Assembly (NCBI GenBank): GCA_964356495.1
Contig: CAYHHR010000002.1
Span: 1 to 56,699, forward strand
DNA from: an uncultured Gammaproteobacteria bacterium
Lineage (GTDB): Bacteria; Patescibacteriota; Patescibacteriia; Magasanikbacterales; GWA2-37-8
DNA: 56,699 bases
Direction of reading: 5' to 3'
Part shown: positions 2-48,091 of the stretch, one piece after another
Numbering within the stretch: position 1 is the first letter of the stretch
Layout of the letters: each line of letters begins with the position of its first letter
Notes under the pieces: generated by a model
Database searches by the model: none
What the model saw: only the letters and a program-made list of their open reading frames with translations
What the model was told of the DNA's origin: nothing
Translations under genes and position numbers: made by a program

Positions 2-1351
2 ATGATTGAAAATATTTTGCAGTTTGAAAAAGATTATCCCGGCGCTAAAATTTTTAAACTTGAAACAAATTATCGCTCCAGCCGGGAAATTTTGGAAGTG
101 GCAAACAGTATCATCGAAAATAATCGTGAGCAGTACAAAAAAAGTTTGAAGACGGTCTTGGAAGGTGAGAAGCCCGATCTGTTTCCACAGTTAGACCAGC
201 AGTCCGAGGGACAATTCGTGGCGGAAAAAATCGCGGGGCTGCTCAAGGCCGGCACTTCGCCCTCAGAAATCTCGGTGCTATTCCGGGCCGCTCATCATTC
301 GCAGATGCTTGAAGTTGAGCTTGTCCAACGCGGGATCGAGTATGATTATCGCGGCGGCGTGCGATTTTTCGAGCGCAGCCACATCAAGGATGTGCTGGCA
401 TTTTTGCGTGTTCTAAATAACGTCGCCGATTCGGCCGCCTGGCTGCGCCTCCTCATGCACGAGGAGGGGATCGGGCCAGTCGCAGCGCAGAAAATTATCG
501 AGACGCTTCGCGCTCTGCCATCGGCAAATGTAGTTGTTGACGCGGGTCGTTCCGCGCTTTCCGGCAAGGCGTTGCTTGGTTGGGAAAATTTTGCTATTAT
601 CTGGGGTCAGTTGCTCCAGGCGCCGATCACTGTGCCGAACGAACTCATTCAAACAATTCTGAAATCTTCGTACCGCGATTATCTGGAAACGGAGTTTGTC
701 GACAGTAAAGAGAGAATGCAGGATCTGATGCAGCTCGCAATTTTCGCGGAAAAGTTTGACGACCTTTCGGAATTTCTCGCGAGTACGACGTTGCAGGAAA
801 CGTTCGCTCCTCCGACCTACCTCTCTCCGGCTCTCTCCTCTGCGGAGGCAGAGAGGGATGTTGAACCCTCGCCTCCGCAGAGGAGAGGGCAGGGAGAGGT
901 CTCGCTCACCAAACGGCAGGGTGAGGATTCGGGCAAGGTCGTCCTCTCTACCGTCCATCAGGCCAAAGGTCTCGAATGGGAAGCGGTTTTCATCATCAAT
1001 CTCGCCAACGGTTCGTTTCCGAGCGAGCGTTCGGCGCGCGAACCGAGAGGGCTCGAGGAGGAACGTCGTCTTTTGTATGTGGCAATCACGCGCGCGAAAA
1101 GGAAACTGGTTTTGACTTACCCGATGGCAGGGGGGATGTATGGTGATTTTCTTTCCGGCCCGAGCCGTTTCCTCGACGAGATAAATCCGGATTTTATCAA
1201 CGACCATTCGCTGTTATCCTCGGACGTGACGGTGCTGAATGACCCGTCGGAAGGAGTGGAATATGTGAGCGAAGACCCCGCCTCTTCGGCGGACGGGGCG
1301 CCCAAAAAGTTCAGTCCGGGGAGTTTCCTACGGGATATAAATGATTTGTGA
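2..1351 (+). CDS. UvrD/PcrA/Rep-family ATP-dependent DNA helicase, C-terminal part (5' end outside window)
   Basis: Superfamily-1 helicase motifs are present: LETNYRSS (motif IV), VVLSTVHQAKGLEWEAVF (motif V) and RRLLYVAITRAKRKL (motif VI). The ORF runs to the window edge. It contains the in-frame repeat A1. Confidence 0.85.
   Translation: MIENILQFEKDYPGAKIFKLETNYRSSREILEVANSIIENNREQYKKSLKTVLEGEKPDLFPQLDQQSEGQFVAEKIAGLLKAGTSPSEISVLFRAAHHSQMLEVELVQRGIEYDYRGGVRFFERSHIKDVLAFLRVLNNVADSAAWLRLLMHEEGIGPVAAQKIIETLRALPSANVVVDAGRSALSGKALLGWENFAIIWGQLLQAPITVPNELIQTILKSSYRDYLETEFVDSKERMQDLMQLAIFAEKFDDLSEFLASTTLQETFAPPTYLSPALSSAEAERDVEPSPPQRRGQGEVSLTKRQGEDSGKVVLSTVHQAKGLEWEAVFIINLANGSFPSERSAREPRGLEEERRLLYVAITRAKRKLVLTYPMAGGMYGDFLSGPSRFLDEINPDFINDHSLLSSDVTVLNDPSEGVEYVSEDPASSADGAPKKFSPGSFLRDINDL
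814..907 (+). repeat. Family A palindromic element, copy A1, in frame inside the UvrD-like CDS
   Basis: About 94 bp that is near-identical to 7664..7757. Both copies encode the same 19 aa (ERDVEPSPPQRRGQGEVSL). Nested inverted repeats: ctgcggagg/cctccgcag, and ctctctcc../..ggagaggtctcgct. Confidence 0.85.
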
Positions 1352-3215: not shown

Positions 3216-3297
3216 TTATCGCAGATGCGCGCGAGCGCCGCAGATATCGCGGATGTATCAATTGTATCTGCGCGGCCTCAAGGACATCTGCGTGATT
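3216..3297 (+). repeat. Family F intergenic repeat, copy F2 (rpsG-fusA spacer)
   Basis: Aligns with F1 and F3: atcgcagatgcgc..cgccgcagat..gtatctgcg..ggcctcaagg.catctgcg. Confidence 0.8.
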
Positions 3298-3338
3298 AAA
3301 CTTATTTTCATATATAATCTTCAAAAATTAACTAATGT

Positions 3339-6333: not shown

Positions 6334-8577
6334 ATGAAATTCAAACTCCACTCCGACTATCAACCCGCCGGCGATCAGCCGAAAGCAATCGAACAGCTGG
6401 TCGATGGCCTTGAAAAAAATTTGAAACGCCAGACTCTCCTCGGCGTCACCGGTTCCGGAAAAACGTTCACAATCGCGAACGTGATTGAACGTGTCCAAAA
6501 ACCAACGCTCGTCATCGCTCACAACAAAACTCTTGCCGCCCAACTCTGCAATGAGTTTCGGGAATTTTTTCCGAAGAATGCCGTGGAATATTTTGTCAGT
6601 TATTATGATTATTATCAGCCGGAAGCGTACATGCCGAATTCGGATACCTATATCGAAAAGGAAGCGATGATCAACGAGGAAATCGACCGTCTTCGTCATG
6701 CCTGCACACAGGCTCTGCTGACACGCGATGATACGATTATCGTTGCGTCTGTTTCCGCGATTTATGGTCTTGGGTCGCCGTTTGAATATGAAAAAATTGT
6801 TTTGCATTTGCGAAAAGGCCAGGAACTCGATCGCCGCGCGATGCTGGAGCAGTTGATCGCGATGCAATTTGAAAGGACGAACAGCGAACTAAAATGCGGT
6901 TCGTTCCGGATGCGCGGACAAGTTTTCGAGATCATGCCGGTCAACGAGGACGCGATTTATCGTTTTGAAATTTCTGCGAGGATAACGCAGATTGAATTGA
7001 TTGACTCAATCACGCGGATAGTGAAACGCGAGGTAGAGGACGTGTGGTTGTTTCCGGCCAGACATTATGTAGTCGGTGAGGAGGGGAGAAAGCAAGCGTT
7101 TGATCGCATCAATAATGAATTGCAGAATCAGCTGGCGCTTTTCGAAAAGCAGGGCAAAGTTTTGGAATACGAAAGGCTGAAGCGCCGGGTCGCATATGAT
7201 TTGCAAATGATTAAGAACGTCGGTTACTGCAACGGCATTGAAAATTATTCTCGCCACTTCGAAGGCAGGACGGAGGGTGAACCCCCGTTTACGCTGCTCG
7301 ATTATTTTTTGCATAGGACTCAGAGGACGGCAAACCCCACCCAACCTCCCCTTGGAAAGGGGAGGGGGACATTTCTCACCGTCATCGACGAATCACACGT
7401 CACGCTTCCGCAAATTCGCAGTATGTACAACGGTGACAAGGCGCGGAAAGATACTTTGGTGGAGCACGGTTTTCGCTTGCCGAGCGCGCGTGATAATCGC
7501 CCGCTTACTTATACTGAGTTTGATTCCAAAATCGGCCAGGCAGTTTATGTTTCGGCGACGCCGAGCGAGTATGAGATGAAAGTTAGCGAACAAATCGTGG
7601 AGCAAATCGTTCGTCCGACCGGTCTTATCGATCCCGAGGTTATCGTGCGTCCGATTGTTGGGCGAGCGAGACCTCTCTCCGGCTCTCTCCTTTGCGAAGG
7701 AGAGAGGGACGTTGAACCCTCGCCTCCGCAGAGGAGAGGGCAGGGAGAGGTCTCGCTGTCACAAATCGAAGATTTAATCTTGCGCATCGAGGAGCGGGTG
7801 AAAAATAACGAACGCGTACTCGTCACCACTCTCACCAAAAAGATGGCTGAGGATTTGACGGAACATTTGAAAGAGAAAAATCTGAAGGTGGCATACCTCC
7901 ACAGCGATGTTAGTACCCTTGATCGCATTGAGGTTATTATGAATTTGCGCCTCGGTAAAAATGATGTCATCGTCGGGGTGAACCTTCTTCGTGAAGGGCT
8001 CGATATGCCGGAAGTTTCATTGGTGGCGATCCTCGACGCCGACAAGGAAGGATTTTTGCGGAGCGAAACAAGTTTGATTCAGACGATCGGCCGCGCCGCG
8101 CGCAATGTGAACGGGCAAGTTGTTTTGTATGCCGACAATATTACTGGTTCGATGAAAAGAGCGATCGAAGAAACCAATCGTCGCCGCGAAATTCAGATGG
8201 CCTACAACAAAGAGCACGGCATTACTCCGAAGACCATCCAAAAAGCGATCCGAAATATTTTGGAGGAATTTGGAATTTCCGCTGATAAAGCGAAGAATCG
8301 CAGGGCTATCGCTCGGCGCGACCGGCTCGCGACGACTACTGAGCTTGATCTGATTGGCGACGGACGCACGATAAGTGTTATAATAAAAGAAAAGGAGACG
8401 CAGATGAAGCAAGCGGCGCAAGAATTGGATTTCGAATTAGCGGCGATTTTGCGAGATGAGATACGAGAGCTGAGAGCAAGAGAAAAAACGACCGGGGTCA
8501 AAGAATTAAAAAAACAAAAAAATAATTATCATACAGGGGTCGTTATTGGCTCCTCCCCCTCACCAAGGGGGAGTTAG
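6334..8577 (+). CDS. uvrB: Excinuclease ABC subunit B
   Basis: GVTGSGKTF (Walker A), VIDESHVT, LVTTLTKKMAEDLT, LREGLD.PEVSLVAILDADKEGFLRS and a C-terminal UVR motif. At 747 aa it is longer than typical UvrB because of three repeat-derived segments. Confidence 0.95.
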   Translation: MKFKLHSDYQPAGDQPKAIEQLVDGLEKNLKRQTLLGVTGSGKTFTIANVIERVQKPTLVIAHNKTLAAQLCNEFREFFPKNAVEYFVSYYDYYQPEAYMPNSDTYIEKEAMINEEIDRLRHACTQALLTRDDTIIVASVSAIYGLGSPFEYEKIVLHLRKGQELDRRAMLEQLIAMQFERTNSELKCGSFRMRGQVFEIMPVNEDAIYRFEISARITQIELIDSITRIVKREVEDVWLFPARHYVVGEEGRKQAFDRINNELQNQLALFEKQGKVLEYERLKRRVAYDLQMIKNVGYCNGIENYSRHFEGRTEGEPPFTLLDYFLHRTQRTANPTQPPLGKGRGTFLTVIDESHVTLPQIRSMYNGDKARKDTLVEHGFRLPSARDNRPLTYTEFDSKIGQAVYVSATPSEYEMKVSEQIVEQIVRPTGLIDPEVIVRPIVGRARPLSGSLLCEGERDVEPSPPQRRGQGEVSLSQIEDLILRIEERVKNNERVLVTTLTKKMAEDLTEHLKEKNLKVAYLHSDVSTLDRIEVIMNLRLGKNDVIVGVNLLREGLDMPEVSLVAILDADKEGFLRSETSLIQTIGRAARNVNGQVVLYADNITGSMKRAIEETNRRREIQMAYNKEHGITPKTIQKAIRNILEEFGISADKAKNRRAIARRDRLATTTELDLIGDGRTISVIIKEKETQMKQAAQELDFELAAILRDEIRELRAREKTTGVKELKKQKNNYHTGVVIGSSPSPRGS
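7321..7369 (+). repeat. Family B element, copy B1, in frame in uvrB
   Basis: ggcaaaccccacccaacctccccttggaaaggggaggggga encodes ANPTQPPLGKGRG just before the DESH box. It matches 8998..9050 and 45742..45783. Confidence 0.85.
7664..7757 (+). repeat. Family A element, copy A2, in frame in uvrB
   Basis: Near-identical to A1. It inserts about 31 aa between VRPIVG and QIEDL, which are contiguous in canonical UvrB. The terminal arms (agcgagacctctc...) are inverted. Confidence 0.9.
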
Positions 8578-8598
8578 AGGGGGTTTGCCTTCCTCTGC
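8548..8598 (-). repeat. Family B element, copy B2 (reverse orientation)
   Basis: ggctcctccccctcaccaagggggagttagagggggtttgcc is the reverse complement of the B consensus. It supplies the last roughly 10 codons and the stop codon of uvrB. Confidence 0.8.
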
Positions 8599-8630
8599 CC
8601 TGCCGAGAGTTGCCTGTCGTTCAATCGTTT

Positions 8631-9059
8631 ATGTCCAAAACAAACAATCTCACCGTACAAAAAAATCGCCGTCAGGACTTAAGGAGCAACATGTCTGTAC
8701 CGGAAAAAATATTATGGAAATGGATTAAAAATGAACAACTCGGCTATAAATTTCGTCGACAACATGGTATTAAACAGTTTATTGCGGATTTCTATTGTCC
8801 AATGTTGAGTTTAGTTATTGAAATCGACGGTCGGATTCATGGTGAGGAGCCTATTGCGACAAAAGATAAATATCGGGATAATGTTATGGTTGGACTGGGA
8901 CTAATTGTTAAACGTTATACGGCTACAGAAATAAATAATAATTTAGATTGGGTTTTGAGTGATTTGAAGAATTGTTGTAGCGAACTTGCCTCGGCGCCAC
9001 AGAGGAAGGCAAACCCCACCTACCCTCCCCTTGGAAAGGGGAGGGAGCCAATGTCGTGA
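8631..9059 (+). CDS. DUF559 (Vsr/restriction-endonuclease-like) domain protein
   Basis: PEKILWKWIKNEQLGYKFRRQH...ADFYCP..LVIEIDG..H matches the DUF559 pattern. The C-terminal roughly 17 aa are encoded by repeat B3. An alternative TTG start lies at 8610. Confidence 0.7.
   Translation: MSKTNNLTVQKNRRQDLRSNMSVPEKILWKWIKNEQLGYKFRRQHGIKQFIADFYCPMLSLVIEIDGRIHGEEPIATKDKYRDNVMVGLGLIVKRYTATEINNNLDWVLSDLKNCCSELASAPQRKANPTYPPLGKGREPMS
8998..9050 (+). repeat. Family B element, copy B3
   Basis: cagaggaaggcaaaccccacctaccctccccttggaaaggggagggagcc is inverted relative to B2 across the DUF559 gene. Confidence 0.85.
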
Positions 9060-9083: not shown

Positions 9084-9716
9084 ATGAAAAACCTAACTAA
9101 AAAATTAATCACAATAGTATCAGCGCTGTTTGTAATATTAGGAATTATTTTTTTAATTTTTGTAAATATTGATATCTTGCAGGAAAAAGCGTTTGTTTTT
9201 TTTCCACCCGACGTGCCCAGCGCCACGGTTGGCCTTATCTTTGGCGGTGGTCTGAACAAAGATGGCAGTTTGAATTCAATGGTCGCGGATCGGGTAGCCG
9301 CCGGAGTGGCCCTGCTACGTTCGGGTAAAGTCGGCGAACTTATGATCACAGGCGATGATGGTAGAATTCACAGTAACGAAGTCGATGCGATGAAAAATGC
9401 GGCGCTCGAGTTAGGCGTTCCGGCGGACAAAATTCTTGTTGATCGCCACGGTTATCGCACTTATGACAGTTGCTATCGCGCGGCCAAAGTTTATGGGATC
9501 AAAAGAGTAATCGCCGTTTCACAATTTTTTCATTTGCCGAGGATAATTTTCCTTTGTGAGCATTTCGGGATCAGCACCACCGGTGTCGCGGCGGACTTTC
9601 GGAATTATGGGTTTGATTCAATTTATATGAATATTCGTGAAGTCGGAGCGAGGCTAAAAGCGTGGTGGCAGGTGAATATTTCCAGACCGGAACCGTTGGT
9701 ATTAAGCAAAGATTAA
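9084..9716 (+). CDS. SanA/YdcF (DUF218) family membrane protein
   Basis: N-terminal TM segment followed by GLIFGGG...ITGDDG...E...M...A...GVP...I..D..G..T..S, typical of SanA/DUF218. An alternative TTG start lies at 9069. Confidence 0.7.
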   Translation: MKNLTKKLITIVSALFVILGIIFLIFVNIDILQEKAFVFFPPDVPSATVGLIFGGGLNKDGSLNSMVADRVAAGVALLRSGKVGELMITGDDGRIHSNEVDAMKNAALELGVPADKILVDRHGYRTYDSCYRAAKVYGIKRVIAVSQFFHLPRIIFLCEHFGISTTGVAADFRNYGFDSIYMNIREVGARLKAWWQVNISRPEPLVLSKD

Positions 9717-12388: not shown

Positions 12389-12820
12389 ATGAACAGTCAA
12401 CATCTCAAGAAAACGCTCCAGCTAATTCGCCGCACTGGTGATAAAGGAATAATTATCGATGAGGAAAGCGATGAACTTTTTGTGCTCATGAATGTTGAGG
12501 CGTATGAAAAGATGCTGCCACCGGTTGAAGAAATGTTGACCAACCCACCCCTACCCCGCCCAAGCGGGGAATTGCCGCGACAGGACCTTACTCGTTTAGA
12601 GGAATCGCTAGATGATTTTGTTCCGGATGATTTTGCTGAAGTAGAGGAACCACGTCGTGTCGCCCCTAGCATACCGGCCGCTCCGATTAGTTTCGCAAAA
12701 GCGGTCGAGCCGGTGGCATTTGAATTCAAACAACATAGCGTCAATCGCGAAGAAAGCCTCGCGGATGTTCCTCACGACGGCGAAGAAGAGGAGAAATTTT
12801 ACCTCGAACCAGTGGAATAG
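12389..12820 (+). CDS. Hypothetical acidic protein with a Phd/YefM-like N-terminus
   Basis: 143 aa. The N-terminus (..ELFVLMNVEAYEKM) resembles the Phd/YefM antitoxin fold. The C-terminal half is acidic. Contains the in-frame repeat C1. Confidence 0.45.
   Translation: MNSQHLKKTLQLIRRTGDKGIIIDEESDELFVLMNVEAYEKMLPPVEEMLTNPPLPRPSGELPRQDLTRLEESLDDFVPDDFAEVEEPRRVAPSIPAAPISFAKAVEPVAFEFKQHSVNREESLADVPHDGEEEEKFYLEPVE
12539..12572 (+). repeat. Family C element, copy C1, in frame
   Basis: ccaacccacccctaccccgcccaagcggggaatt encodes NPPLPRPSGEL. It matches 46009..46042 in the same frame and 25385..25417 as reverse complement. Confidence 0.85.
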
Positions 12821-14964: not shown

Positions 14965-15654
14965 ATGAAATTTATCTTAGGCAAAAAAATCGGCATGACG
15001 CAGGTTTTTTCTAAGAACGGAGACGTGATTCCAGTCACCAGAGTGGAAGCCGGCCCGTGTCAGGTTGTACAAATTAAAGACGGCAAAAAAGATAATGCAA
15101 TCGCTTTGCAGTTAGGTTTTGGCACGCCTCGAAGTTACAAAGTAACAAAGCCGATGACTGGGCATTTGAAAGGTTTAGAACCAGCCCAGTTCCTTCATGA
15201 TTTCGGGATGGAATCGGTAGACAAATTCGAGAGAGGTGATGTTGTCACCGTTGATACTTTTGTCGCTGGGGACAAGGTCGCCGTTATAGGCGTTTCAAAG
15301 GGTAAAGGTTTTGCCGGTGTCGTAAAGCGCCACCATTTCCGCGGTGCTCCAGCTACCCATGGTCACAAACACGATCTACGCATGCCTGGTTCGATCGGAG
15401 CCGGCGGTGTACAGCGCGTTTTCAAAGGGATGCGCATGGGCGGACGAATGGGTACCGATCAGGTCACCGTCAAGAATTTAGAAATTGTAAATATTTTACC
15501 AGAGCAGAATGAACTTCAGATCAAAGGAGCTATTCCTGGTGGTCGCGGAGGATTCATTATTATTACTGCCGAGGGAGAATTAAAGGTTCAGAAGTCCGCC
15601 TCATCGGCGGATCAGCCGGAGAGGCTGAAAAGTAAAGAGGAAGCGAAAGTTTAA
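14965..15654 (+). CDS. rplC: 50S ribosomal protein L3
   Basis: MKFILGKKIGMTQVF... and GKGFAGVVKRH.F. An alternative ATG lies at 14953. The C-terminal tail is encoded by repeat J1. Confidence 0.95.
   Translation: MKFILGKKIGMTQVFSKNGDVIPVTRVEAGPCQVVQIKDGKKDNAIALQLGFGTPRSYKVTKPMTGHLKGLEPAQFLHDFGMESVDKFERGDVVTVDTFVAGDKVAVIGVSKGKGFAGVVKRHHFRGAPATHGHKHDLRMPGSIGAGGVQRVFKGMRMGGRMGTDQVTVKNLEIVNILPEQNELQIKGAIPGGRGGFIIITAEGELKVQKSASSADQPERLKSKEEAKV
15595..15630 (+). repeat. Family J element, copy J1, in frame at the rplC 3' end
   Basis: tccgcctcatcggcggatcagccggagaggctgaaa (two hairpins) matches 19052..19087. It encodes SASSADQPERLK. Confidence 0.8.
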
Positions 15655-18394: not shown

Positions 18395-19108
18395 ATGGGT
18401 CACAAAGTCCATCCAAAAATTCATCGCATCCCTTACATATTTCCTTGGGATTCACGCTGGTTCGCGAAGCGCGATCAGATGCCTGGTTTTTTGAAACAAG
18501 AAATTGCGATCAGGGAATTTTTGTTAAAGAAATTAAAAGAAGCCAGCGTTGATTCGATCAGCATCGAGAGAACGCCAAAAGATCTTTCGATCACTATCCT
18601 CGCCGGCAAACCGGGCGTGGTAATCGGCCGCGGGGGACAGGGACTTGAATTGATCCGAAAAGAAATCGAAAAGAAAATTTTACAATTTAAAACAAAAGTC
18701 AAATTAAATATTCAGCCGGTTCAACAGCCAGCTTTGTCAGCCGCGATTGTGGCGCAGAACATTGTTCTTGATATCGAAAAGCGTCTGCCGTTCCGCCGCG
18801 TTATGAAACAGACGATTGAGAAAGTGATGGCCGCCGGCGCCAAAGGAGTAAAGATCGGTATGGCTGGTCGCCTCAACGGCGTGGAAATCGCCCGTCGCGA
18901 AAAATTGGCCGCCGGTAAAATGTCGCTTATAACTTTACGCAGCAATGTTGATTACGCGCTCGCCGAAGCACACACGATGTATGGCAAGATCGGCGTCAAA
19001 GTCTGGATTTATTTTGGAGAAACTTTTGCGAAGAAAGACAAGTTTGAAAAATCCGCCTCTACGGCGGATCAGCCGAAGAGGCTGAAAGGCGACGAATCCA
19101 AAGTCTAA
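18395..19108 (+). CDS. rpsC: 30S ribosomal protein S3
   Basis: MGHKVHP...R......W.S.WFA and the KH-domain motif GVVIGRGG. The C-terminal tail is encoded by repeat J2. Confidence 0.96.
19052..19087 (+). repeat. Family J element, copy J2, in frame at the rpsC 3' end
   Basis: tccgcctctacggcggatcagccgaagaggctgaaa differs from J1 at only a few positions. It encodes [12 protein letters not shown]. Confidence 0.8.
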
Positions 19109-19545: not shown

Positions 19546-19566
19546 TTATATGGGCTACGCCACATA

Positions 19567-19624
19567 TAATCTAATTCGCTCGGAAATGAAAATTAATTTT
19601 CATTTCGCTCACTCATTACGATTA
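19567..19624 (+). repeat. Family I hairpin element, copy I1, abutting the rpmC ATG
   Basis: taatctaattcgctcggaaatgaaaattaattttcatttcgctcactcattacgatta is the reverse complement of 38480..38537 with a few mismatches. Confidence 0.8.
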
Positions 19625-19806
19625 TGGATTTCGCGGATTTAAAAGCCAAAAGCAAAGCGGAACTAGGTGATTTATTGAAAGAATTAGATCAGAAGTTGTT
19701 TGTGTTTCGTCTTCAGGCCCACATGCGCCGCTTGAAGCAGGTGCATGAGATTAGTGCCCTCCGCCGAACTATCGCCCGCGTTCACATGTTATTAGATACC
19801 AAGTAA
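19624..19806 (+). CDS. rpmC: 50S ribosomal protein L29
   Basis: 60 aa with ..LK..S..EL...L.EL...LF.LR.Q... in the expected operon position. Confidence 0.9.
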   Translation: MDFADLKAKSKAELGDLLKELDQKLFVFRLQAHMRRLKQVHEISALRRTIARVHMLLDTK

Positions 19807-21330: not shown

Positions 21331-21516
21331 ATGGCTACGTACGCACAAATTGCAAAATCAAGCCGCAAACCGAAATTTTCCACCCGAATTGTCCGACGCT
21401 GTTGGAATTGCGGACGCCGCCGCGGTTTTATCGGCGCGTTCAACCTATGTCGTATTTGTTTTAGAGAGTTTGCGAACGCCGGTCTCATTCCGGGAGTGCG
21501 TAAATCAAGTTGGTAA
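21331..21516 (+). CDS. rpsN: 30S ribosomal protein S14, short zinc-binding (type Z) form
   Basis: 61 aa with the pattern C.NCGR..G......LCR.CFRE.A..G.IPGV.K.SW. Confidence 0.93.
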   Translation: MATYAQIAKSSRKPKFSTRIVRRCWNCGRRRGFIGAFNLCRICFREFANAGLIPGVRKSSW

Positions 21517-21517
21517 T

Positions 21518-21551
21518 GTGCCTCATCGGCACATCCGCCGCTGAGGCGGAT
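21518..21551 (+). repeat. Double hairpin after rpsN, possibly related to family J (J3)
   Basis: gtgcctcatcggcac followed by atccgccgctgaggcggat. It shares the cctcatcgg and tccgcc..ggcgga arms with J1 and J2. The family assignment is tentative. Confidence 0.4.
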
Positions 21552-21597
21552 TCTACTGAATAAATAATATTTTTCAAGATAACAAATATCAAGTCGT

Positions 21598-22945: not shown

Positions 22946-23024
22946 TATCGCAGATGCGCATAGCGCGCCGCAGATGTCGCAGATGTATCTGCGTAATCTG
23001 CGGGCCCCAAGGCTATCTGTGTAA
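22946..23024 (+). repeat. Family F intergenic repeat, copy F3 (rplR-rpsE spacer)
   Basis: atatcgcagatgcgcatagcgcgccgcagatgtcgcagatgtatctgcgtaatctgcgggccccaaggctatctgtg aligns with F1 and F2. Confidence 0.8.
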
Positions 23025-23036
23025 TAAACGTAAAAT

Positions 23037-23576
23037 ATGAACAAAGGATCACGAAGAGGTGGGCGAGAAAGAGAAAAGTCAGAGTTTGACCAATTTATTT
23101 TAGATATTGCCAGGGTGACGCGCGTCACGCAAGGCGGCAAGCATTTGAGTTTCCGCGTCTGTGTTATCCTTGGCGATCGACACGGAACTGTCGGATTCGG
23201 CGTCGCGAAAGGCAAAGACGTCCAACTCGGAGTAGAGAAAGCGGTGCACCAGGCGAAGAAGCATATGATCAAGGTGCCAATCGTACGAGACACTCTTCCT
23301 CACATGGTAGTCCGAAAGTATAAGGCCGCCATGGTCATGTTGAAGCCGGCTCCAAGAGGTTCCGGTATTATCGCTGGCGGAGCGGCACGCGTGGTGCTCG
23401 AGCTCGCCGGCATCCCGAACGTTTCTTCAAAAATTCTCGGCAAAACCAAAAATAAAATCGCGATCGTAAAGGCTACCTTTGACGCTCTCCAGAGTTTCAA
23501 GCGCGTGCCTGTTTCAATGAAAAAAATAACTTCACCGGTTGTCGTCGAAACTAAAACTGAAGAAAAAGCTAAATAA
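23037..23576 (+). CDS. rpsE: 30S ribosomal protein S5
   Basis: ..I.RV.RV..GG....F...V.VGD..G.VG.G.GKA..V..A..KA. Confidence 0.95.
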   Translation: MNKGSRRGGREREKSEFDQFILDIARVTRVTQGGKHLSFRVCVILGDRHGTVGFGVAKGKDVQLGVEKAVHQAKKHMIKVPIVRDTLPHMVVRKYKAAMVMLKPAPRGSGIIAGGAARVVLELAGIPNVSSKILGKTKNKIAIVKATFDALQSFKRVPVSMKKITSPVVVETKTEEKAK

Positions 23577-23582
23577 AGTTTT

Positions 23583-24050
23583 ATGTTACAAGTACACACT
23601 ATCAAAGCCGCTTTCGGCGCGAAGCATCGAGTAAAACGCGTTGGCAGAGGGAACGCCTCCGGTCACGGTACGATGTCGACGCGCGGCGGCAAGGGTCAGA
23701 CTGCCCGATCCGGCGGCAGCCGCGGCCTCGCCCAAAAAGGTTTCCGTCGTCTGATGCAGTCCGCTCCAAAATTGCGCGGTTTCAAAGCGTTGAATCCCGG
23801 TCCAACTGAGGTTTACTTGATGGATTTAGAGAAACATTTTGCGGCCGGTGAAACGGTTGATTTGAAATCACTCATCGAAAAGCATTTGCTTAGCATCAAT
23901 GCTACGTCTGCTAAACTTGTTCTAAAAGGAGATTTGACCAAGAAATTAATCGTCGCTATTCCTTGCACCAAAGGGGCGGCTGAAAAAGTAAAAGCCGTTG
24001 GTGGGACGCTGAGCGTCCATGAAACCACGCTAAGCGTGGTGGGGAAGTAA
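23583..24050 (+). CDS. rplO: 50S ribosomal protein L15
   Basis: ..K.R.RVGRG..SG.G.....G.KGQ.ARSG. The gene starts 6 nt after rpsE, leaving no room for an L30 gene. Confidence 0.93.
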   Translation: MLQVHTIKAAFGAKHRVKRVGRGNASGHGTMSTRGGKGQTARSGGSRGLAQKGFRRLMQSAPKLRGFKALNPGPTEVYLMDLEKHFAAGETVDLKSLIEKHLLSINATSAKLVLKGDLTKKLIVAIPCTKGAAEKVKAVGGTLSVHETTLSVVGK

Positions 24051-25358: not shown

Positions 25359-25381
25359 CCATCCCAAAAGGGTGGTTTTTT
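25359..25381 (+). terminator. Rho-independent terminator after secY
   Basis: cca(t)ccc-aaaa-gggtgg stem with one bulged T, followed by a T6 run. Confidence 0.5.
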
Positions 25382-25384
25382 GTA

Positions 25385-25417
25385 TTCCCCGCTTGGGCGG
25401 GGTAGGGGTGGGTTGGC
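25385..25417 (-). repeat. Family C element, copy C2 (intergenic, reverse orientation)
   Basis: ttccccgcttgggcggggtaggggtgggttggc is the reverse complement of C1 and C3. Confidence 0.85.
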
Positions 25418-25570
25418 GTTGTCATTGTCCTCCTCTTCCTTAAGAGGAGGTGCCCAACAGGGCGGAGGAGTTTCGTCGTCGATTTGTGTCGTCGCGAACC
25501 CGACTCCTCCGTCTCGCGCGAGCGAGCCACCTCCCCTTGAGAAAGGGGAGGACAGACAGTGCCTTACCAT
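25418..25570. repeat. Cluster of nested G/C-rich hairpin elements (family D)
   Basis: Three hairpins: cctcctctt-cctt-aagaggagg; ggaggagt...actcctcc; and gagcgagccacctccccttgagaaaggggagg, which looks like a hybrid of the family A arm and the family B hairpin. Confidence 0.7.
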
Positions 25571-26020: not shown

Positions 26021-26027
26021 CCAACTT

Positions 26028-26130
26028 CTCTCCCCTTTTAGGGGAGAGGCGAGGAGAGGGGAATTGTTTGGAAGTTTCGAGTTCGCGCGAATACCCCACC
26101 CACTGTCCCTCCCCTAATAGGGGAGGGGAA
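26028..26130 (+). repeat. Family E composite element, copy E1 (about 103 bp)
   Basis: ctctcccctttaggggagag + gcgaggagagggg..gttcgcg..ataccccacc..ccctcccctaataggggaggg aligns along its length with 44359..44463. Confidence 0.8.
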
Positions 26131-38451: not shown

Positions 38452-38479
38452 ATGACAAAAAATTATAGGCTACTCATTA

Positions 38480-38537
38480 TAATCGTAATGAGTGAGTGAA
38501 ATGAAAATTTATTTTCATTTCCGAGCGAATTAGATTA
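38480..38537 (-). repeat. Family I hairpin element, copy I2 (upstream of topA)
   Basis: Reverse complement of I1 with the central hairpin ggaaatgaaaat..attttcatttc. It lies 28 nt upstream of the topA ATG, in the same orientation relative to the gene as I1 has to rpmC. Confidence 0.8.
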
Positions 38538-38595
38538 TATCGAAGATATATATATACCTATTCAAATTACACGCATTTTCACTCAGTGTCAATTT

Positions 38596-43219: not shown

Positions 43220-43293
43220 GGATGATTAGCTCAGCTGGTTAGAGCGTTGCATTCACATTGCAAAGGCCACTGGTTCAAATCCAGTATCATCCA
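43220..43293 (+). tRNA. tRNA-Val (anticodon CAC)
   Basis: GGATGAT acceptor stem, GCTC/GAGC D-stem, anticodon arm TTGCA-TTCACAT-TGCAA, and GGTTCAAATCC T-arm. Confidence 0.85.
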
Positions 43294-43294
43294 C

Positions 43295-43340
43295 GACGCT
43301 TAGCGTCGTTTAAGGGACGCTCAGCGTCCCACCACGCTAG
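43295..43340 (+). repeat. Two tandem short hairpins after tRNA-Val
   Basis: cgacgc-tta-gcgtcg and gggacgc-tca-gcgtccc share the core gacgctNagcgtc. Confidence 0.5.
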
Positions 43341-44358: not shown

Positions 44359-44463
44359 CTCCCTCCCTCTATTAGGGGAGGGGCAGGAGAGGGGTATCGT
44401 TGGGGATTTTCGTTCGTGGGGATACCCCCATCCTCGCCTTCCCCCTAATAGGGGGAAGGGAAA
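44359..44463 (+). repeat. Family E composite element, copy E2 (about 105 bp)
   Basis: ctccctccctctattaggggaggg + gcaggagagggg..gttcgtgggg..atacccccatc..ccttccccctaatagggggaaggg aligns with E1. Confidence 0.8.
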
Positions 44464-44504: not shown

Positions 44505-46664
44505 ATGGTTCATATGGATCTCCAAACTAGGATCGAAGCTCTAAACAAAGTCGGGAAGACGACTGCTAAAAAGCTGGAACGGCTTGGTATTTTTACTGTT
44601 AATAATTTACTTCATCATTATCCGTTTCGTTACGAAGATTTTAGCCGCGTCGCGCCGATCAAGGATTTGCGCGAGGGCGATTCGGTGACGGTGAAAGGCG
44701 TGATTGAATTGATCGCCAATCGTCGGATTCGCAACCGACGCAGTCTTACCGAAGCCCTGCTTACCGATGAGACCGGCAGTATCAGGCTGATCTGGTTTAA
44801 TCAGCCGTACCTCACAAAAAATCTCGAGACCGGCACGGAAGTATATATTTCCGGCGTGATAAAACATGATGCGCTCGGTTTGCAGTTCGTGAGTCCCGCC
44901 TATGAATTAGCCTCGCGACGTAATATTCACACCGCTCGCCTGGTGCCGATGTATCCTCTCACCGAAGGGATCACACAGAAGCAGGTGAGATTTTTGGTTG
45001 AGCAATCATTGCCGGCCGCGCCAACCATAAGTGATTGGTTGCCGGAGAAAATTAAGAAGGAAAATAATCTGATCGCGTTGCAGGGGGCGATTAAGCAAAT
45101 TCATTTTCCAGAATCTGACGCGCAAATGAATTTGGCCACCGAGCGTCTGAAGTTTGATGAATTATTTTTGATTCAGCTCCAGGCGGAACTCGCTCGCCAC
45201 GAGCAAACTATTCTAAGGGCGCCAGTGTTGGCATTTCATGAGGAAGAAATAAAAAAGTTTGTGGCTGGTCTGCCGTTTACTCTCACCAAGGATCAAAAAA
45301 TTTCGGCTTGGGAAATTCTACAAAATATTGCCGGCGAAGTGCCGATGAACCGGCTGTTGTCCGGCGACGTCGGATCCGGCAAGACCGTGGTCGCCGCCGT
45401 TGCTCTCTACAATACCGTTCTTTCCGGTTTCCAGGGGATCATGATGGCGCCAACGGAGATTTTGGCAACGCAGCATTTTGATTCGGTCTGCAGATTGTTG
45501 CAGGATCAGACGCTAGTATTGTTTACTCGTTCACATCATTTAATATTTAAGAATCGAGAGAAGTTCGAGGTTTCAAAGAAAGAACTGCAAAAGATAATCG
45601 CCACCGGCGAAGCGAACGTGATCATTGGGACGCATGCTTTGCTGTCGGAAGGGGTTGAGTTTAAAAATGTTGGCCTCGTGGTCGTGGACGAACAGCATCG
45701 TTTCGGAGTATTGCAGAGGAAAGTGATTAAGAGCAAAGGAGGGCAAACCCCACCTAACCTCCCCTTGGAAAGGGGAGGGAGCCACGCCGTGCACTTTCTC
45801 AGCATGACGGCGACGCCGATCCCGCGTTCGCTCGCTCTGATGGTCTATGGTGATCTTGATGTTTCTGTAATCAGAGAAATGCCGCCGGGAAGAAAACCGG
45901 TTATGACCAGGATCGTCGAGCCGCGAAATCGCGACAAGGCTTATGAATTTATTCGAAAAGAAGTTGGGAAAGGCGGACAGGTGTTTGTGGTTTGTCCGTT
46001 GATTGACGCCAACCCACCCCTACCCCGTCCGAGCGGGGACTTCATTGTGAATGATAAAAAATCGGTAATGACTGAATACAAAAAATTATCTGAAAATATT
46101 TTTCCGAATTTGAGAGTCAATTATCTCCACGGTAAGATGAAAGGTGAAGAAAAAGAAAAAATAATGGCGCAGTTTAAAAATAAGGAATATGATATTCTGG
46201 TTTCGACTTCGGTGATCGAAGTCGGAGTGGATGTGCCAAACGCGACCATTATGTTGATCGAGGGAGCCGAGCGGTTTGGGTTGGCGCAGCTGCATCAGTT
46301 CAGAGGGAGAGTGGGGAGGGGCGACCGGCAGTCTTATTGTTTTGTATTTACGGACAGCGAGACCTCTCCCTACCCTCTCCTCTGTGGAGGCGAGGGTTCA
46401 CGAACTATGGAGCGGTTGCGTTTTTTTGAAAAACATCAGAACGGTTTCGAGCTGGCCGAAAAAGATTTGGAGTTGCGTGGTCCCGGGGAAGTCTATGGGA
46501 CGACGCAGAGCGGAATGATGCAACTCCGCCTAGCTAAGCTTTCGGACACCGCGTTAATAAAAAAAGCCCGCGAGTCAGCGCGAGTTATTTCATCTCAACT
46601 TTCAGAATTCCCGGAGCTCATTAAAAAAATGAAAGAGTGGGAAGAGTCGGTGCACTTAGAATGA
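44505..46664 (+). CDS. recG: ATP-dependent DNA helicase RecG
   Basis: Wedge/OB N-terminal domain, then GDVGSGKT, VVDEQHRFGV, MTATPIPRSLA, VIEVGVDVPNA and FRGRVGRG. Carries three in-frame repeat insertions. Confidence 0.95.
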   Translation: MVHMDLQTRIEALNKVGKTTAKKLERLGIFTVNNLLHHYPFRYEDFSRVAPIKDLREGDSVTVKGVIELIANRRIRNRRSLTEALLTDETGSIRLIWFNQPYLTKNLETGTEVYISGVIKHDALGLQFVSPAYELASRRNIHTARLVPMYPLTEGITQKQVRFLVEQSLPAAPTISDWLPEKIKKENNLIALQGAIKQIHFPESDAQMNLATERLKFDELFLIQLQAELARHEQTILRAPVLAFHEEEIKKFVAGLPFTLTKDQKISAWEILQNIAGEVPMNRLLSGDVGSGKTVVAAVALYNTVLSGFQGIMMAPTEILATQHFDSVCRLLQDQTLVLFTRSHHLIFKNREKFEVSKKELQKIIATGEANVIIGTHALLSEGVEFKNVGLVVVDEQHRFGVLQRKVIKSKGGQTPPNLPLERGGSHAVHFLSMTATPIPRSLALMVYGDLDVSVIREMPPGRKPVMTRIVEPRNRDKAYEFIRKEVGKGGQVFVVCPLIDANPPLPRPSGDFIVNDKKSVMTEYKKLSENIFPNLRVNYLHGKMKGEEKEKIMAQFKNKEYDILVSTSVIEVGVDVPNATIMLIEGAERFGLAQLHQFRGRVGRGDRQSYCFVFTDSETSPYPLLCGGEGSRTMERLRFFEKHQNGFELAEKDLELRGPGEVYGTTQSGMMQLRLAKLSDTALIKKARESARVISSQLSEFPELIKKMKEWEESVHLE
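45742..45783 (+). repeat. Family B element, copy B4, in frame in recG
   Basis: ggcaaaccccacctaacctccccttggaaaggggagggagcc is read in a different frame from B1 and B3 (QTPPNLPLERGGS). It lies between helicase motifs II and III. Confidence 0.85.
46009..46042 (+). repeat. Family C element, copy C3, in frame in recG
   Basis: ccaacccacccctaccccgtccgagcggggactt encodes NPPLPRPSGDF, in the same frame as C1. Confidence 0.85.
46356..46402 (-). repeat. Family A half-element, copy A3 (reverse orientation), in frame in recG
   Basis: agcgagacctctccctaccctctcctctgtggaggcgagggttca is the reverse complement of the right half of A1 and A2. It encodes ETSPYPLLCGGEGS. Confidence 0.8.
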
Positions 46665-46732: not shown

Positions 46733-48091
46733 TTAAGTGTGTTTGATGATCTCCTGGATATTTTTGATATCGAGGATTTTAATTCTCCCACTCCCCCCCG
46801 TCCCCTCTCGGGCAGAGGGGGATATATTCTTTCCGATGTTAGATAGCACTCGTTTCAACCCGAGCTGTTCGCATTCTTTAATTCTTTTTTCAATCTGAAC
46901 AATCGGCCGAACTTCGCCGCCGAGTCCGACTTCTCCGAAGACGACGAGATCGCCGCCGAGGGGTTTGTCTTTGTAGGCGCTCGCGATGGCGAGAGCGATG
47001 GCGAGGTCAGCCGCCGGTTCGTCGGCAGTAAGTCCGCCGGCGATGTTGATGTGGATATCGTAGCTTTCGAGTTGGAGTTTGGCGCGTTTTTGTAGAACGG
47101 CGATGAGGACGTGCAGACGATTCAAATCAAAACCGCTGGCCTTGCGGGTCGGATAGCCAAAGGCGGTCTTGGTGACCAAGGCTTGAACCTCGACGAGAAG
47201 CGGGCGCGTACCCTCGATGAGGCAGGTCAGAACGTTTCCCGGTAGATTTTCTCCTCGCTCCGAGAGAAAAGCGGCGGAAGGATTTTTGACTTCGCGTAGA
47301 CCGCCCTCATGCATTTGGAATACTCCGACTTCATCAGTTGATCCGAAACGATTTTTCACGGTTCTGAGGATTCGATAAAAATGATGTCGGTCACCCTCGA
47401 GATATACGACCGTGTCTACCAGATGTTCGAGAGTTTTTGGCCCGGCGACGATGCCTTCTTTGGTGACATGGCCGACGATGATGGCGGTGGTCGAAGTTGG
47501 CTTCACGGCCTCGAGGAGTTTGGTGGTGCAAGCGCGGATCTGAGTGGGGGAGCCGGCTTCGCCCTCGACTTCATTTGAAAAAATTGTTTGCATCGAGTCG
47601 ATGATCACGAGCGTTGGTTTTTGAAACAGAATCGTCGCGATGATTATTTCGATGTTAGTTTCGTTGGCGAGCTCTAAGGTTTTGGAATTTATGTTGAGTC
47701 GATCGGCGCGAAGTTTTATTTGGCCGATTGATTCTTCTCCGGAAATTACCAGCGAGTTCGGAATTTTTGCGGCCATTTCGATCGTTAGGGTAGATTTTCC
47801 GATTCCTGGTTCGCCGCCGAGCAGGATCAGACTGCCGGGGACGAGACCGCCACCCAGCACCCGATCAAGTTCGTCGATATTAGTTTTTACTCGTTTGACA
47901 CCTTCACTTTTTATTTCTCCAAGCTTTACCGTCTTCGCCGGTTCAACGTCAGATTTTTTATTTTCTGCTCCTGTCATTTTACCTTCGGCGATTGTGCCCC
48001 ATTTTCCGCATTCTAAACAACGTCCAGTCCATTTGGAGTACTGAGCGTCGCAGGAGGAACATTTGAAGATGGTTTTATTGTCGTTTTTCAC
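46733..48091 (-). CDS. radA: DNA repair protein RadA/Sms
   Basis: N-terminal zinc finger (CSSC..C.ECGKW), Walker A (GGEPGIGKSTL), KNRFG, and a Lon-like C-terminal domain. Contains a repeat-derived insertion near the C-terminus. Confidence 0.95.
   Translation of the reverse strand: MKNDNKTIFKCSSCDAQYSKWTGRCLECGKWGTIAEGKMTGAENKKSDVEPAKTVKLGEIKSEGVKRVKTNIDELDRVLGGGLVPGSLILLGGEPGIGKSTLTIEMAAKIPNSLVISGEESIGQIKLRADRLNINSKTLELANETNIEIIIATILFQKPTLVIIDSMQTIFSNEVEGEAGSPTQIRACTTKLLEAVKPTSTTAIIVGHVTKEGIVAGPKTLEHLVDTVVYLEGDRHHFYRILRTVKNRFGSTDEVGVFQMHEGGLREVKNPSAAFLSERGENLPGNVLTCLIEGTRPLLVEVQALVTKTAFGYPTRKASGFDLNRLHVLIAVLQKRAKLQLESYDIHINIAGGLTADEPAADLAIALAIASAYKDKPLGGDLVVFGEVGLGGEVRPIVQIEKRIKECEQLGLKRVLSNIGKNISPSAREGTGGSGRIKILDIKNIQEIIKHT
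46784..46823. repeat. G/C-rich hairpin element K, in frame in the radA 3' region
   Basis: tctcccactcccccccgtcccctctcgggcagagggggat contains the hairpin cccctct-cgggc-agagggg and resembles half of family E. It encodes SPSAREGTGGSG on the minus strand. Confidence 0.6.

Follow-up and report, generated by a model that had tools for sequence, protein, structure and literature searches.

To our knowledge, the spread of selfish repeats, in frame, into essential genes has so far been treated as a speciality of Rickettsia, and the structured repeats called BoxC, PIT or TMECO, described since the 1990s, have neither a function nor a spreading mechanism that we know of. Here we describe three short repeat units, termed B4, C3 and A3, within recG of an uncultured Patescibacteria (Candidate Phyla Radiation, CPR) bacterium, on a 56,699-nt contig (CAYHHR010000002.1 of assembly GCA_964356495.1) that was analysed at its full length, is about 91% coding by a crude open reading frame (ORF) estimate and is called the window below, all coordinates being window positions. 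The names under which the nearest RecG and UvrB proteins are recorded place the bacterium close to Magasanikbacteria. We put the probability at roughly 0.85 that short mobile DNA units inserted separately to give the three segments, which are translated as loops. Rickettsia palindromic elements (RPEs; Ogata et al. 2000 and 2002, as summarised in PMC10969869) comprise, like the units in the window, several short palindromic families that stand in frame in unrelated housekeeping genes and are translated as fold-compatible peptides, with no transposase inside the element. However, RPEs measure about 100-150 bp and the present units 34-93 nt, and the latter occur in Patescibacteria, carry a triplex-type mirror box beside the hairpin and can be tied to a nuclease cassette. 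Because the features that mark RPEs as a class recur here (a multi-copy palindromic repeat, frame-preserving inserts in recG, uvrB, radA and a uvrD-like gene that are absent from orthologues, and sites in loops), the phenomenon resembles that of the RPEs by analogy, the likeness being one of functional class.

With BoxC/PIT/TMECO repeats the units share a C-rich stem, a loop of 3-6 nt, a G-rich stem, a loop of about 3 nt that is frequently TTA, and one more stem rich in G, as well as inverted pairs that combine two distinct kinds of unit. The E. coli TMECO motif folds into a class II purine triplex, as established by circular dichroism and nuclear magnetic resonance, often occurs as inverted pairs of two types, and was reported to be always intergenic and unconnected with mobile elements known so far (Holder et al. 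2015, PMC4666352). In contrast to the strictly intergenic repeats of E. coli, the copies of A, B, C and radA type lie for the most part inside genes in the window, and units also bracket a gene for a DUF559 endonuclease. The exact TMECO consensus (CCCTCNCCC N3-6 GGGNGAGGG N3 GGGNGAGGG) had no match in the window, so that the units there represent other sequence families of the class; exact matches occurred only beside DUF559 genes, namely at one locus (L152) and about 170 nt downstream of the DUF559 gene ycjD of E. coli K-12. A third parallel is offered by repetitive extragenic palindromes and their associated tyrosine transposases (REP/RAYT, or REPtrons), which are likewise scattered short structured repeats that also flank, in inverted orientation, one small gene for a DNA-cutting enzyme. 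There, however, the enzyme is a Y1 HUH transposase, whereas here it is the Vsr-like DUF559 protein with a restriction-endonuclease fold (PF04480), and REPs are extragenic and carry a GTAG or CGTC tag, whereas the present units lack the tag and are often intragenic. Our literature search found no relevant paper on in-frame repeats in CPR bacteria, nor one that tied DUF559 to repeats or mobility. What appears to be new is the occurrence of triplex-type motifs in frame within conserved, mostly housekeeping genes, in Patescibacteria, and their systematic association with DUF559 genes.

The recG product aligns end to end with the solved RecG of Thermotoga maritima (1GM5, E 2e-151), its database copy (P0001, 716 aa) agrees with translation beginning three codons further in, from the ATG at 44514, and its helicase motifs are all intact despite the inserts. 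A preliminary description of this DNA had claimed three in-frame repeat elements in recG, and all three were recovered within a few bases of where it had placed them: B4 at aa 413-426, after motif II (DEQH, aa 395-398) and ahead of motif III (TATP, aa 435-438); C3 right after the VCPLI strand, which reads VFVVCPLI; and A3 12 residues downstream of RGRVGRG. The peptides that they encode include GQTPPNLPLERGGS, NPPLPRPSGD and SPYPLLCGGEG. In a blastn-short comparison within the window, whose families a repeat search likewise recovered, B4 matched 9003-9050 (95.8% over 48 nt, E 3e-18) and 7324-7366 (95.3%, E 3e-15), A3 matched 7713-7760 in reverse (95.8% over 48 nt, E 3e-18) and 862-906 (95.6%, E 2e-16), and C3 matched 25386-25419 in reverse (94.1% over 34 nt, E 5e-10) and 12540-12570 (93.5%, E 3e-8). 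B4 is indeed read in another frame (..GQTPPNLPLERGG..) than its relatives B1 and B3 (..ANPTxPPLGKGR..), C1 and C3 are read in a common frame (NPPLPRPSGE/D), and A3 proved to be, as proposed, a half element in reverse orientation to A1 and A2, since it corresponds to the right arm of the 93-nt A palindrome in reverse complement.

All three sites are empty in the nearest relative. The closest RecG (P0002; 84% identical by BLASTP, 88% as aligned) is encoded on L001, a contig that shares synteny with the window over recG, radA and five further genes, and the recG of L001, 82% identical at the DNA level, lacks 42, 24 and 33 nt at exactly the sites of B4, C3 and A3 in both codon-aware and whole-locus alignments; L001 also lacks 24 nt of a fourth unit, in radA, at 46787-46810. 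The inserts are gaps relative to the solved RecG proteins of T. maritima and E. coli (1GM5, 9WM0) as well, the loop between motifs II and III measures 17 aa in 72 of 118 RecG homologues, and the stretch from motif VI to ERL measures 19 aa in 110 of 114. Conservation in distant RecG proteins, the observation that the preliminary description had set against its own proposal, was therefore not encountered, the segments being absent from the nearest relative, the solved structures and most of the 118 homologues. Because the copies are 91-96% identical to one another while recG is only 82% identical to that of L001, the copies are either younger than the split of the two lineages or homogenised.

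These comparisons also bear on the idea that the segments are old, lineage-specific RecG loops kept for function, whose similarity to other DNA arose by copying out or by convergence. That the same loops of RecG and UvrB carry additional residues in many Patescibacteria would be in keeping with it, but the nearest relative lacks all three inserts, the loop residues differ in sequence between close relatives, and protein-level constraint cannot explain why copies spread over uvrB, a uvrD-like gene, the DUF559 gene, a further ORF and DNA between genes, in either orientation and in differing frames, are 91-96% identical to them at the DNA level; we regard such an origin as extremely unlikely. Scarcely any credence attaches to an assembly artefact in which short repeats caused mis-joins. 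The contig is indeed metagenomic and repeat-rich, but recG continues in frame on both sides of each insert, unlike at a mis-join, an identical UvrB with its inserts is recorded on a separate 13.5-kb ENA contig (P0241), and L002, which was assembled independently, shows a B-type unit at this site of its own recG. In L002 (also listed as L088), two B-type units stand in tandem or nested at the B4 site (positions 2386-2481 of L002), the first truncated in its hairpin loop, and an A-type unit occupies the C3 site. More widely, peptides of several types that derive from units occupy the loop between motifs II and III in a dozen or more RecG homologues, including A-type units at the B4 site.

In an AlphaFold model of the protein (mean predicted local distance difference test score, pLDDT, 77; predicted template modelling score 0.67), the coils of the helicase core with pLDDT below 50 are aa 414-425, 502-518 and 621-629, which coincide with the B4, C3 and A3 inserts, and each insert sits between a regular strand or helix and the next secondary-structure element. 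On this model the inserts are extra surface loops compatible with the protein fold, and the insert-bearing RecG is presumably active.

Net insert lengths were multiples of three in all six cases measured (the four given above for recG and radA, together with 42 and 75 nt in uvrB), which would occur by chance about once in 700, and all six inserts are free of stop codons in the frame that is read. The uniform lengths point to inserts that are translated and not skipped. Removal or skipping at expression, whether as a mini-intein, a small intron or a bypassed segment resembling the byp elements of yeast mitochondria, would fit the stable hairpins formed by the units, since bypass elements also form stable hairpins. 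Yet a skipped element would need neither a length divisible by three nor an open frame, the units, encoding just 8-31 aa, are far too short for an intein, and there was no match to an Rfam family: the whole window yielded three tRNAs alone at gathering thresholds, and permissive scanning, applied to the DUF559 cassette and to the insert region of recG, turned up chance-level matches alone. Skipping is accordingly very improbable. The preliminary description had further proposed that the elements are stop-free in several frames and orientations, as expected if only ORF-compatible insertions survive. Six-frame translation bore out the first part, with three to six of the six frames open per copy (mostly four to six; just three in B2), but open frames were no commoner than in composition-matched shuffles (P 0.19-0.89), the exception being the A2 palindrome with five of six open (P 0.03). 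They follow from a G+C-rich, T/A-poor composition, and open frames as a sign of selection on the elements were therefore discarded. Survival of ORF-compatible insertions is nevertheless supported by the lengths divisible by three, the lack of stop codons in the frame read and the positions in predicted coils.

Related units were found throughout the window, in genes and between them, and their positions are collected in Table 1. In uvrB, B1 is an 18-aa gap relative to solved UvrB and adds 14 aa relative to the closest UvrB proteins, the four closest of which (86-88% identical) read LHGGKRDFLT at this site without the additional residues. A2 forms a 31-aa insert relative to solved UvrB, with a DNA hairpin of -35.9 kcal/mol (z -6.4), and its site is empty in three relatives and filled by other inserts in others, so that UvrB proteins 80-88% identical show four states there: empty, an A palindrome, an unrelated insert of the SVILSE..AQDDN type and a third palindrome. 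The hairpin of A1 reaches -37.6 kcal/mol (z -8.1); the partial UvrD-like protein that contains it had no match in a search of solved structures at E<=1e-60. A separate in-frame family (..SVILSEAKN..GSFA.AQDDN.. or ..IASSAPRPPRNDN..) was seen in UvrB and RecG homologues P0242, P0243, P0252, P0263, P0312 and P0013, in loops equivalent to 7660-7760 and 45740 of the window; at the A2 site of close relatives it replaces the A palindrome with an identical total loop length of 43 aa.

Table 1. Positions of recG, the repeat units and the DUF559 cassette in the window. Net lengths are relative to the relative L001; triads are those correct in the purine-motif triplex search, with the shuffles reaching that value in brackets.
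Feature	Position	Strand	Context and reading	Net length (nt)	Correct triads
recG	44505..46664	+	719-aa ORF; Pfam RecG_wedge, DEAD, Helicase_C, RecG_dom3_C		
B4, solo B-type unit	45734..45784	+	in recG; C-rich strand is the coding strand; read as GGQTPPNLPLERGGS	+42	9/9 (0/200)
C3, solo C-type unit	46006..46044 (46009-46042 in the repeat search)	+	in recG; read as ANPPLPRPSGD	+24	4/6
A3, single A-type unit	46353..46400	+	in recG; read as DSETSPYPLLCGGEGS	+33	8/9 (0/200)
A1, full A palindrome	813..906 (819-906 in the repeat search)	+	in frame in UvrD-like helicase gene (2..1351, cut by window edge)		
B1, B-type unit	7321..7371	+	in frame in uvrB (6334..8577)		
A2, full 93-nt A palindrome	7665..7757	+	two units, boxes outward; in frame in uvrB		
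DUF559 cassette, about 500 bp	8547..9050	+	B2 (8547-8601, inverted), DUF559 endonuclease ORF (8631..9059) and B3 (9000-9050)		
C1, C-type unit	12540..12573	+	in frame in ORF 12389..12820 (..NPPLPRPSGE..)		5/6
C2, C-type unit	25381..25419	-	intergenic, downstream of secY		5/6
Partial B-type copy	25529-25552				
Unit of shared architecture	26027-26060		intergenic; motif search		
Unit of shared architecture	26094-26127		intergenic; motif search		9/9
Unit of shared architecture	44360-44393		intergenic, just upstream of recG; motif search		
Unit of shared architecture	44425-44458		intergenic, just upstream of recG; motif search		10/10
radA unit, shared architecture	46786..46825	+	in frame near C-terminus of radA (46733..48091, minus strand)	+24	7/7

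Every unit is 34-51 nt long and G+C-rich, and on its G-rich strand has the same order of parts: a pyrimidine arm, a loop, a purine arm, a gap of 2-5 nt (2-3 nt in the recG units) and a purine box that mirrors the arm. We scored this arrangement with a purpose-written search for purine-motif intrastrand triplexes (G.G-C, A.A-T and T.A-T triads) against 200 shuffles per unit; at most four of the 200 attained the value of the unit itself (zero to three for the B4, A3, C and radA units), and for most units none did. A pyrimidine-motif triplex on the C-rich strand, our initial reading, was replaced by the purine motif on the G-rich strand because positions predicted by the mirror to be T repeatedly hold an A instead, which fits T.A-T triads, as published for TMECO. 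Species-representative genomes, scanned with the B core, yielded upwards of 106 loci, and among 93 units with an intact hairpin, from many phyla and with the variants CTC, TCC, CCT, CTT and TCT, box and arm covaried as mirrors at three variable positions (29 matches of 39 against 17.3 expected, P<1e-4). Judged by sequence, the A, B and C units are variants of a single predicted intrastrand-triplex class, and they may well fold as triplexes in vivo. The three different families of the preliminary description thus hold good as separate insertions of sequence variants, but not as distinct kinds of element, all of them being built of a hairpin and a mirror box.

The units take four forms, namely the inverted ends of a DUF559 cassette, inverted pairs without a gene, tail-to-tail palindromes and solo units. 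In the window, the cassette has inverted arms of 63 nt that are 79% complementary, and its ORF matches PF04480 (E 1e-23); the stop codon of uvrB lies inside B2, and the C-terminus of the DUF559 protein is encoded by B3. In the relatives L197, L198 and L199, uvrB shares 14 nt with the DUF218 gene downstream of it and the cassette is missing; it is therefore polymorphic for presence at this junction. Inverted units bracketed the DUF559 gene in all five loci first examined, that is, in the window and in four homologues (43-72% identical) with differing neighbourhoods, one of which (L008) has an A-type unit at one end. Among 71 further metagenomic loci (34-55% identical), the inverted-repeat score between the flanks was at least 18 in 35, compared with 4 of 211 mismatched-locus controls, which were used because palindromic hairpins match in both orientations and render a direct-orientation control uninformative. 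Strict triplex motifs occurred at 1.98 per kb within about 200 nt of the ends of DUF559 genes against 0.15 per kb elsewhere in those loci, a 13-fold difference. (The loci behind the bracketing results are window 8547-9059, L003, L006, L007, L008, L116-L195 and, for E. coli ycjD, L196.) In L003 the two end types (ACC/TCC-box and CTC-box) are swapped relative to the orientation of the DUF559 gene as compared with 8547-9050 of the window, which suggests an inversion of the gene segment or an exchange of ends.

Gene-less inverted pairs of both end types were present on at least 10 contigs of the genome of L002, and the pair upstream of its recG retains the first 30 nt or so of cassette-internal sequence. 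[quoted passage not shown] Unlike MITEs, however, solo ends are at least as common as pairs, and the putative autonomous partner has no recognised transposase. Elsewhere, 33 of 83 B-type units in other genomes lie within stretches of 150 or more codons that contain no stop, every frame and orientation being represented. The host proteins there, named by sequence inspection and not by Pfam, include DNA polymerase I, two UvrD-type helicases, RarA, XerC/D, UvrC, AlaRS, TrmD, RsmI, QueA, RluD and a NifS-like cysteine desulfurase, and some host genes carry whole inverted pairs in frame. On these grounds it is possible, and we advance it tentatively, that DUF559 endonucleases are the missing mobility enzymes of the BoxC/PIT/TMECO class, the bracketed gene being the autonomous element and the pairs and solo units that are scattered over bacterial genomes its non-autonomous offspring, which in the streamlined genomes of Patescibacteria would colonise loops of DNA-repair and housekeeping proteins.

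The units might instead be spread by host recombination or by replication slippage at structured DNA, without a dedicated enzyme, DUF559 genes merely sitting or being captured between them. This we consider unlikely, although part of the evidence accords with it: most units have no DUF559 gene near them, short stretches of microhomology link the element ends to empty targets, and triplex motifs in E. coli have been linked to local genome instability and not to known mobile elements (Holder et al. 2015, PMC4666352). The bracketing of DUF559, on the other hand, is systematic across homologues 34-100% identical in different neighbourhoods; the flanks are specific to their cassette, with matched scores far above those of mismatched-locus controls; relatives differ by the presence or absence of the whole cassette; and the gene-less pairs keep their stretch of cassette-internal sequence.

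Several observations weigh against reading the units as mobile insertions spread by a nuclease. We know of no DUF559 protein among the known transposases. The notion that every unit adjoins a DUF559 gene had to be rejected, such a gene lying within 200 nt in just 4 of 70 loci with B-type units, a figure that fits non-autonomous copies without establishing mobilisation by DUF559. Neither target-site duplications, which would be expected of MITEs, nor clean insertion boundaries could be defined at the recG sites, in 15 copies of the cassette or of pairs, or where uvrB meets DUF218; the boundaries are not fixed because the flanks are too diverged. The microhomology between element ends and empty targets amounts to 5-6 nt (AAAGGA at B4, AACCC at C3 and GGTTC at A3). 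L002, although more distant than L001, has an occupied B4 site, whereas that of L001 is empty, so that the site was either hit twice or precisely vacated. C3 follows the triplex rule weakly, and translation through the inserts is deduced from their lengths and open frames.

On the insertion reading favoured here, the Vsr-like DUF559 nuclease would recognise the structured ends and promote their copying or insertion, and the non-autonomous pairs and solo units would move in trans; it is thus the putative mobiliser of the units. An intragenic copy would persist where its net length is a multiple of three, the frame read is free of stop codons and the site is a tolerant surface loop, being then read as a disordered loop rich in Pro, Gly, Leu, Arg and Ser that leaves the catalytic motifs unharmed, and selection would purge copies that break frame or fold. 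Certain loops of RecG and UvrB were, however, hit repeatedly by differing elements, even among close relatives, which implies that a target preference may act beside this survival filter; the tolerance of the loops accounts for part of the recurrent hits, perhaps alongside such a preference. Units are present in all four DNA-repair ATPase genes of the window (the uvrD-like gene, uvrB, recG and radA), and topA, a clpB-like gene, fusA, tuf, relA/spoT, der, an aminoacyl-tRNA synthetase gene, PGM, secY and dprA are without them; in other genomes, about 8 of 20 host genes serve DNA repair or recombination. This bias, which comes from a post hoc comparison, could reflect tolerance, low expression or a genuine link.

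Other repeats share the window with these units. A double-hairpin repeat distinct from the A, B and C units (TCCGCC..GGCGGA, TCAGCC..GGCTGA) occurs at 15583-15630, 19040-19087 and 21505-21552; two copies are read in frame within the C-terminal tails of the ribosomal proteins L3 (..KSASSADQPERLK..) and S3, and the third lies between genes. A double-hairpin repeat of 44 nt (GGGACGCTGAGCGTCC / CCACGCTAAGCGTGG) codes for the final residues of an L15-looking gene (23583..24050) at 23999-24042 and recurs inverted, at 43291-43334, just after the tRNA at 43220-43293. A further family (GCGCCACAGATGTCGCAGATGTATCTG..; 2655-2738, 3235-3315, 22961-23044 and 9443-9485) fills the spacers between S12 and S7 and between S7 and elongation factor G, which measure 103 and 125 nt in the window against 21 and 9 nt in the relative L197. 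Two intergenic regions 19 kb apart carry a 62-nt A+T-rich inverted pair (19564-19625 and 38479-38540) that is 97% complementary.

In-frame colonisation of genes by repeats is now seen in Patescibacteria, whose genomes have little intergenic DNA. It bears on how variation in protein length and seemingly "novel" loops in CPR proteins are read, and it carries a warning for annotation, in that Pro/Gly-rich low-complexity inserts may derive from repeats. The units also tie the triplex repeats of the BoxC/PIT/TMECO class to one nuclease family of unknown function, DUF559, a link that offers a testable hypothesis for both the repeats and the nuclease family.

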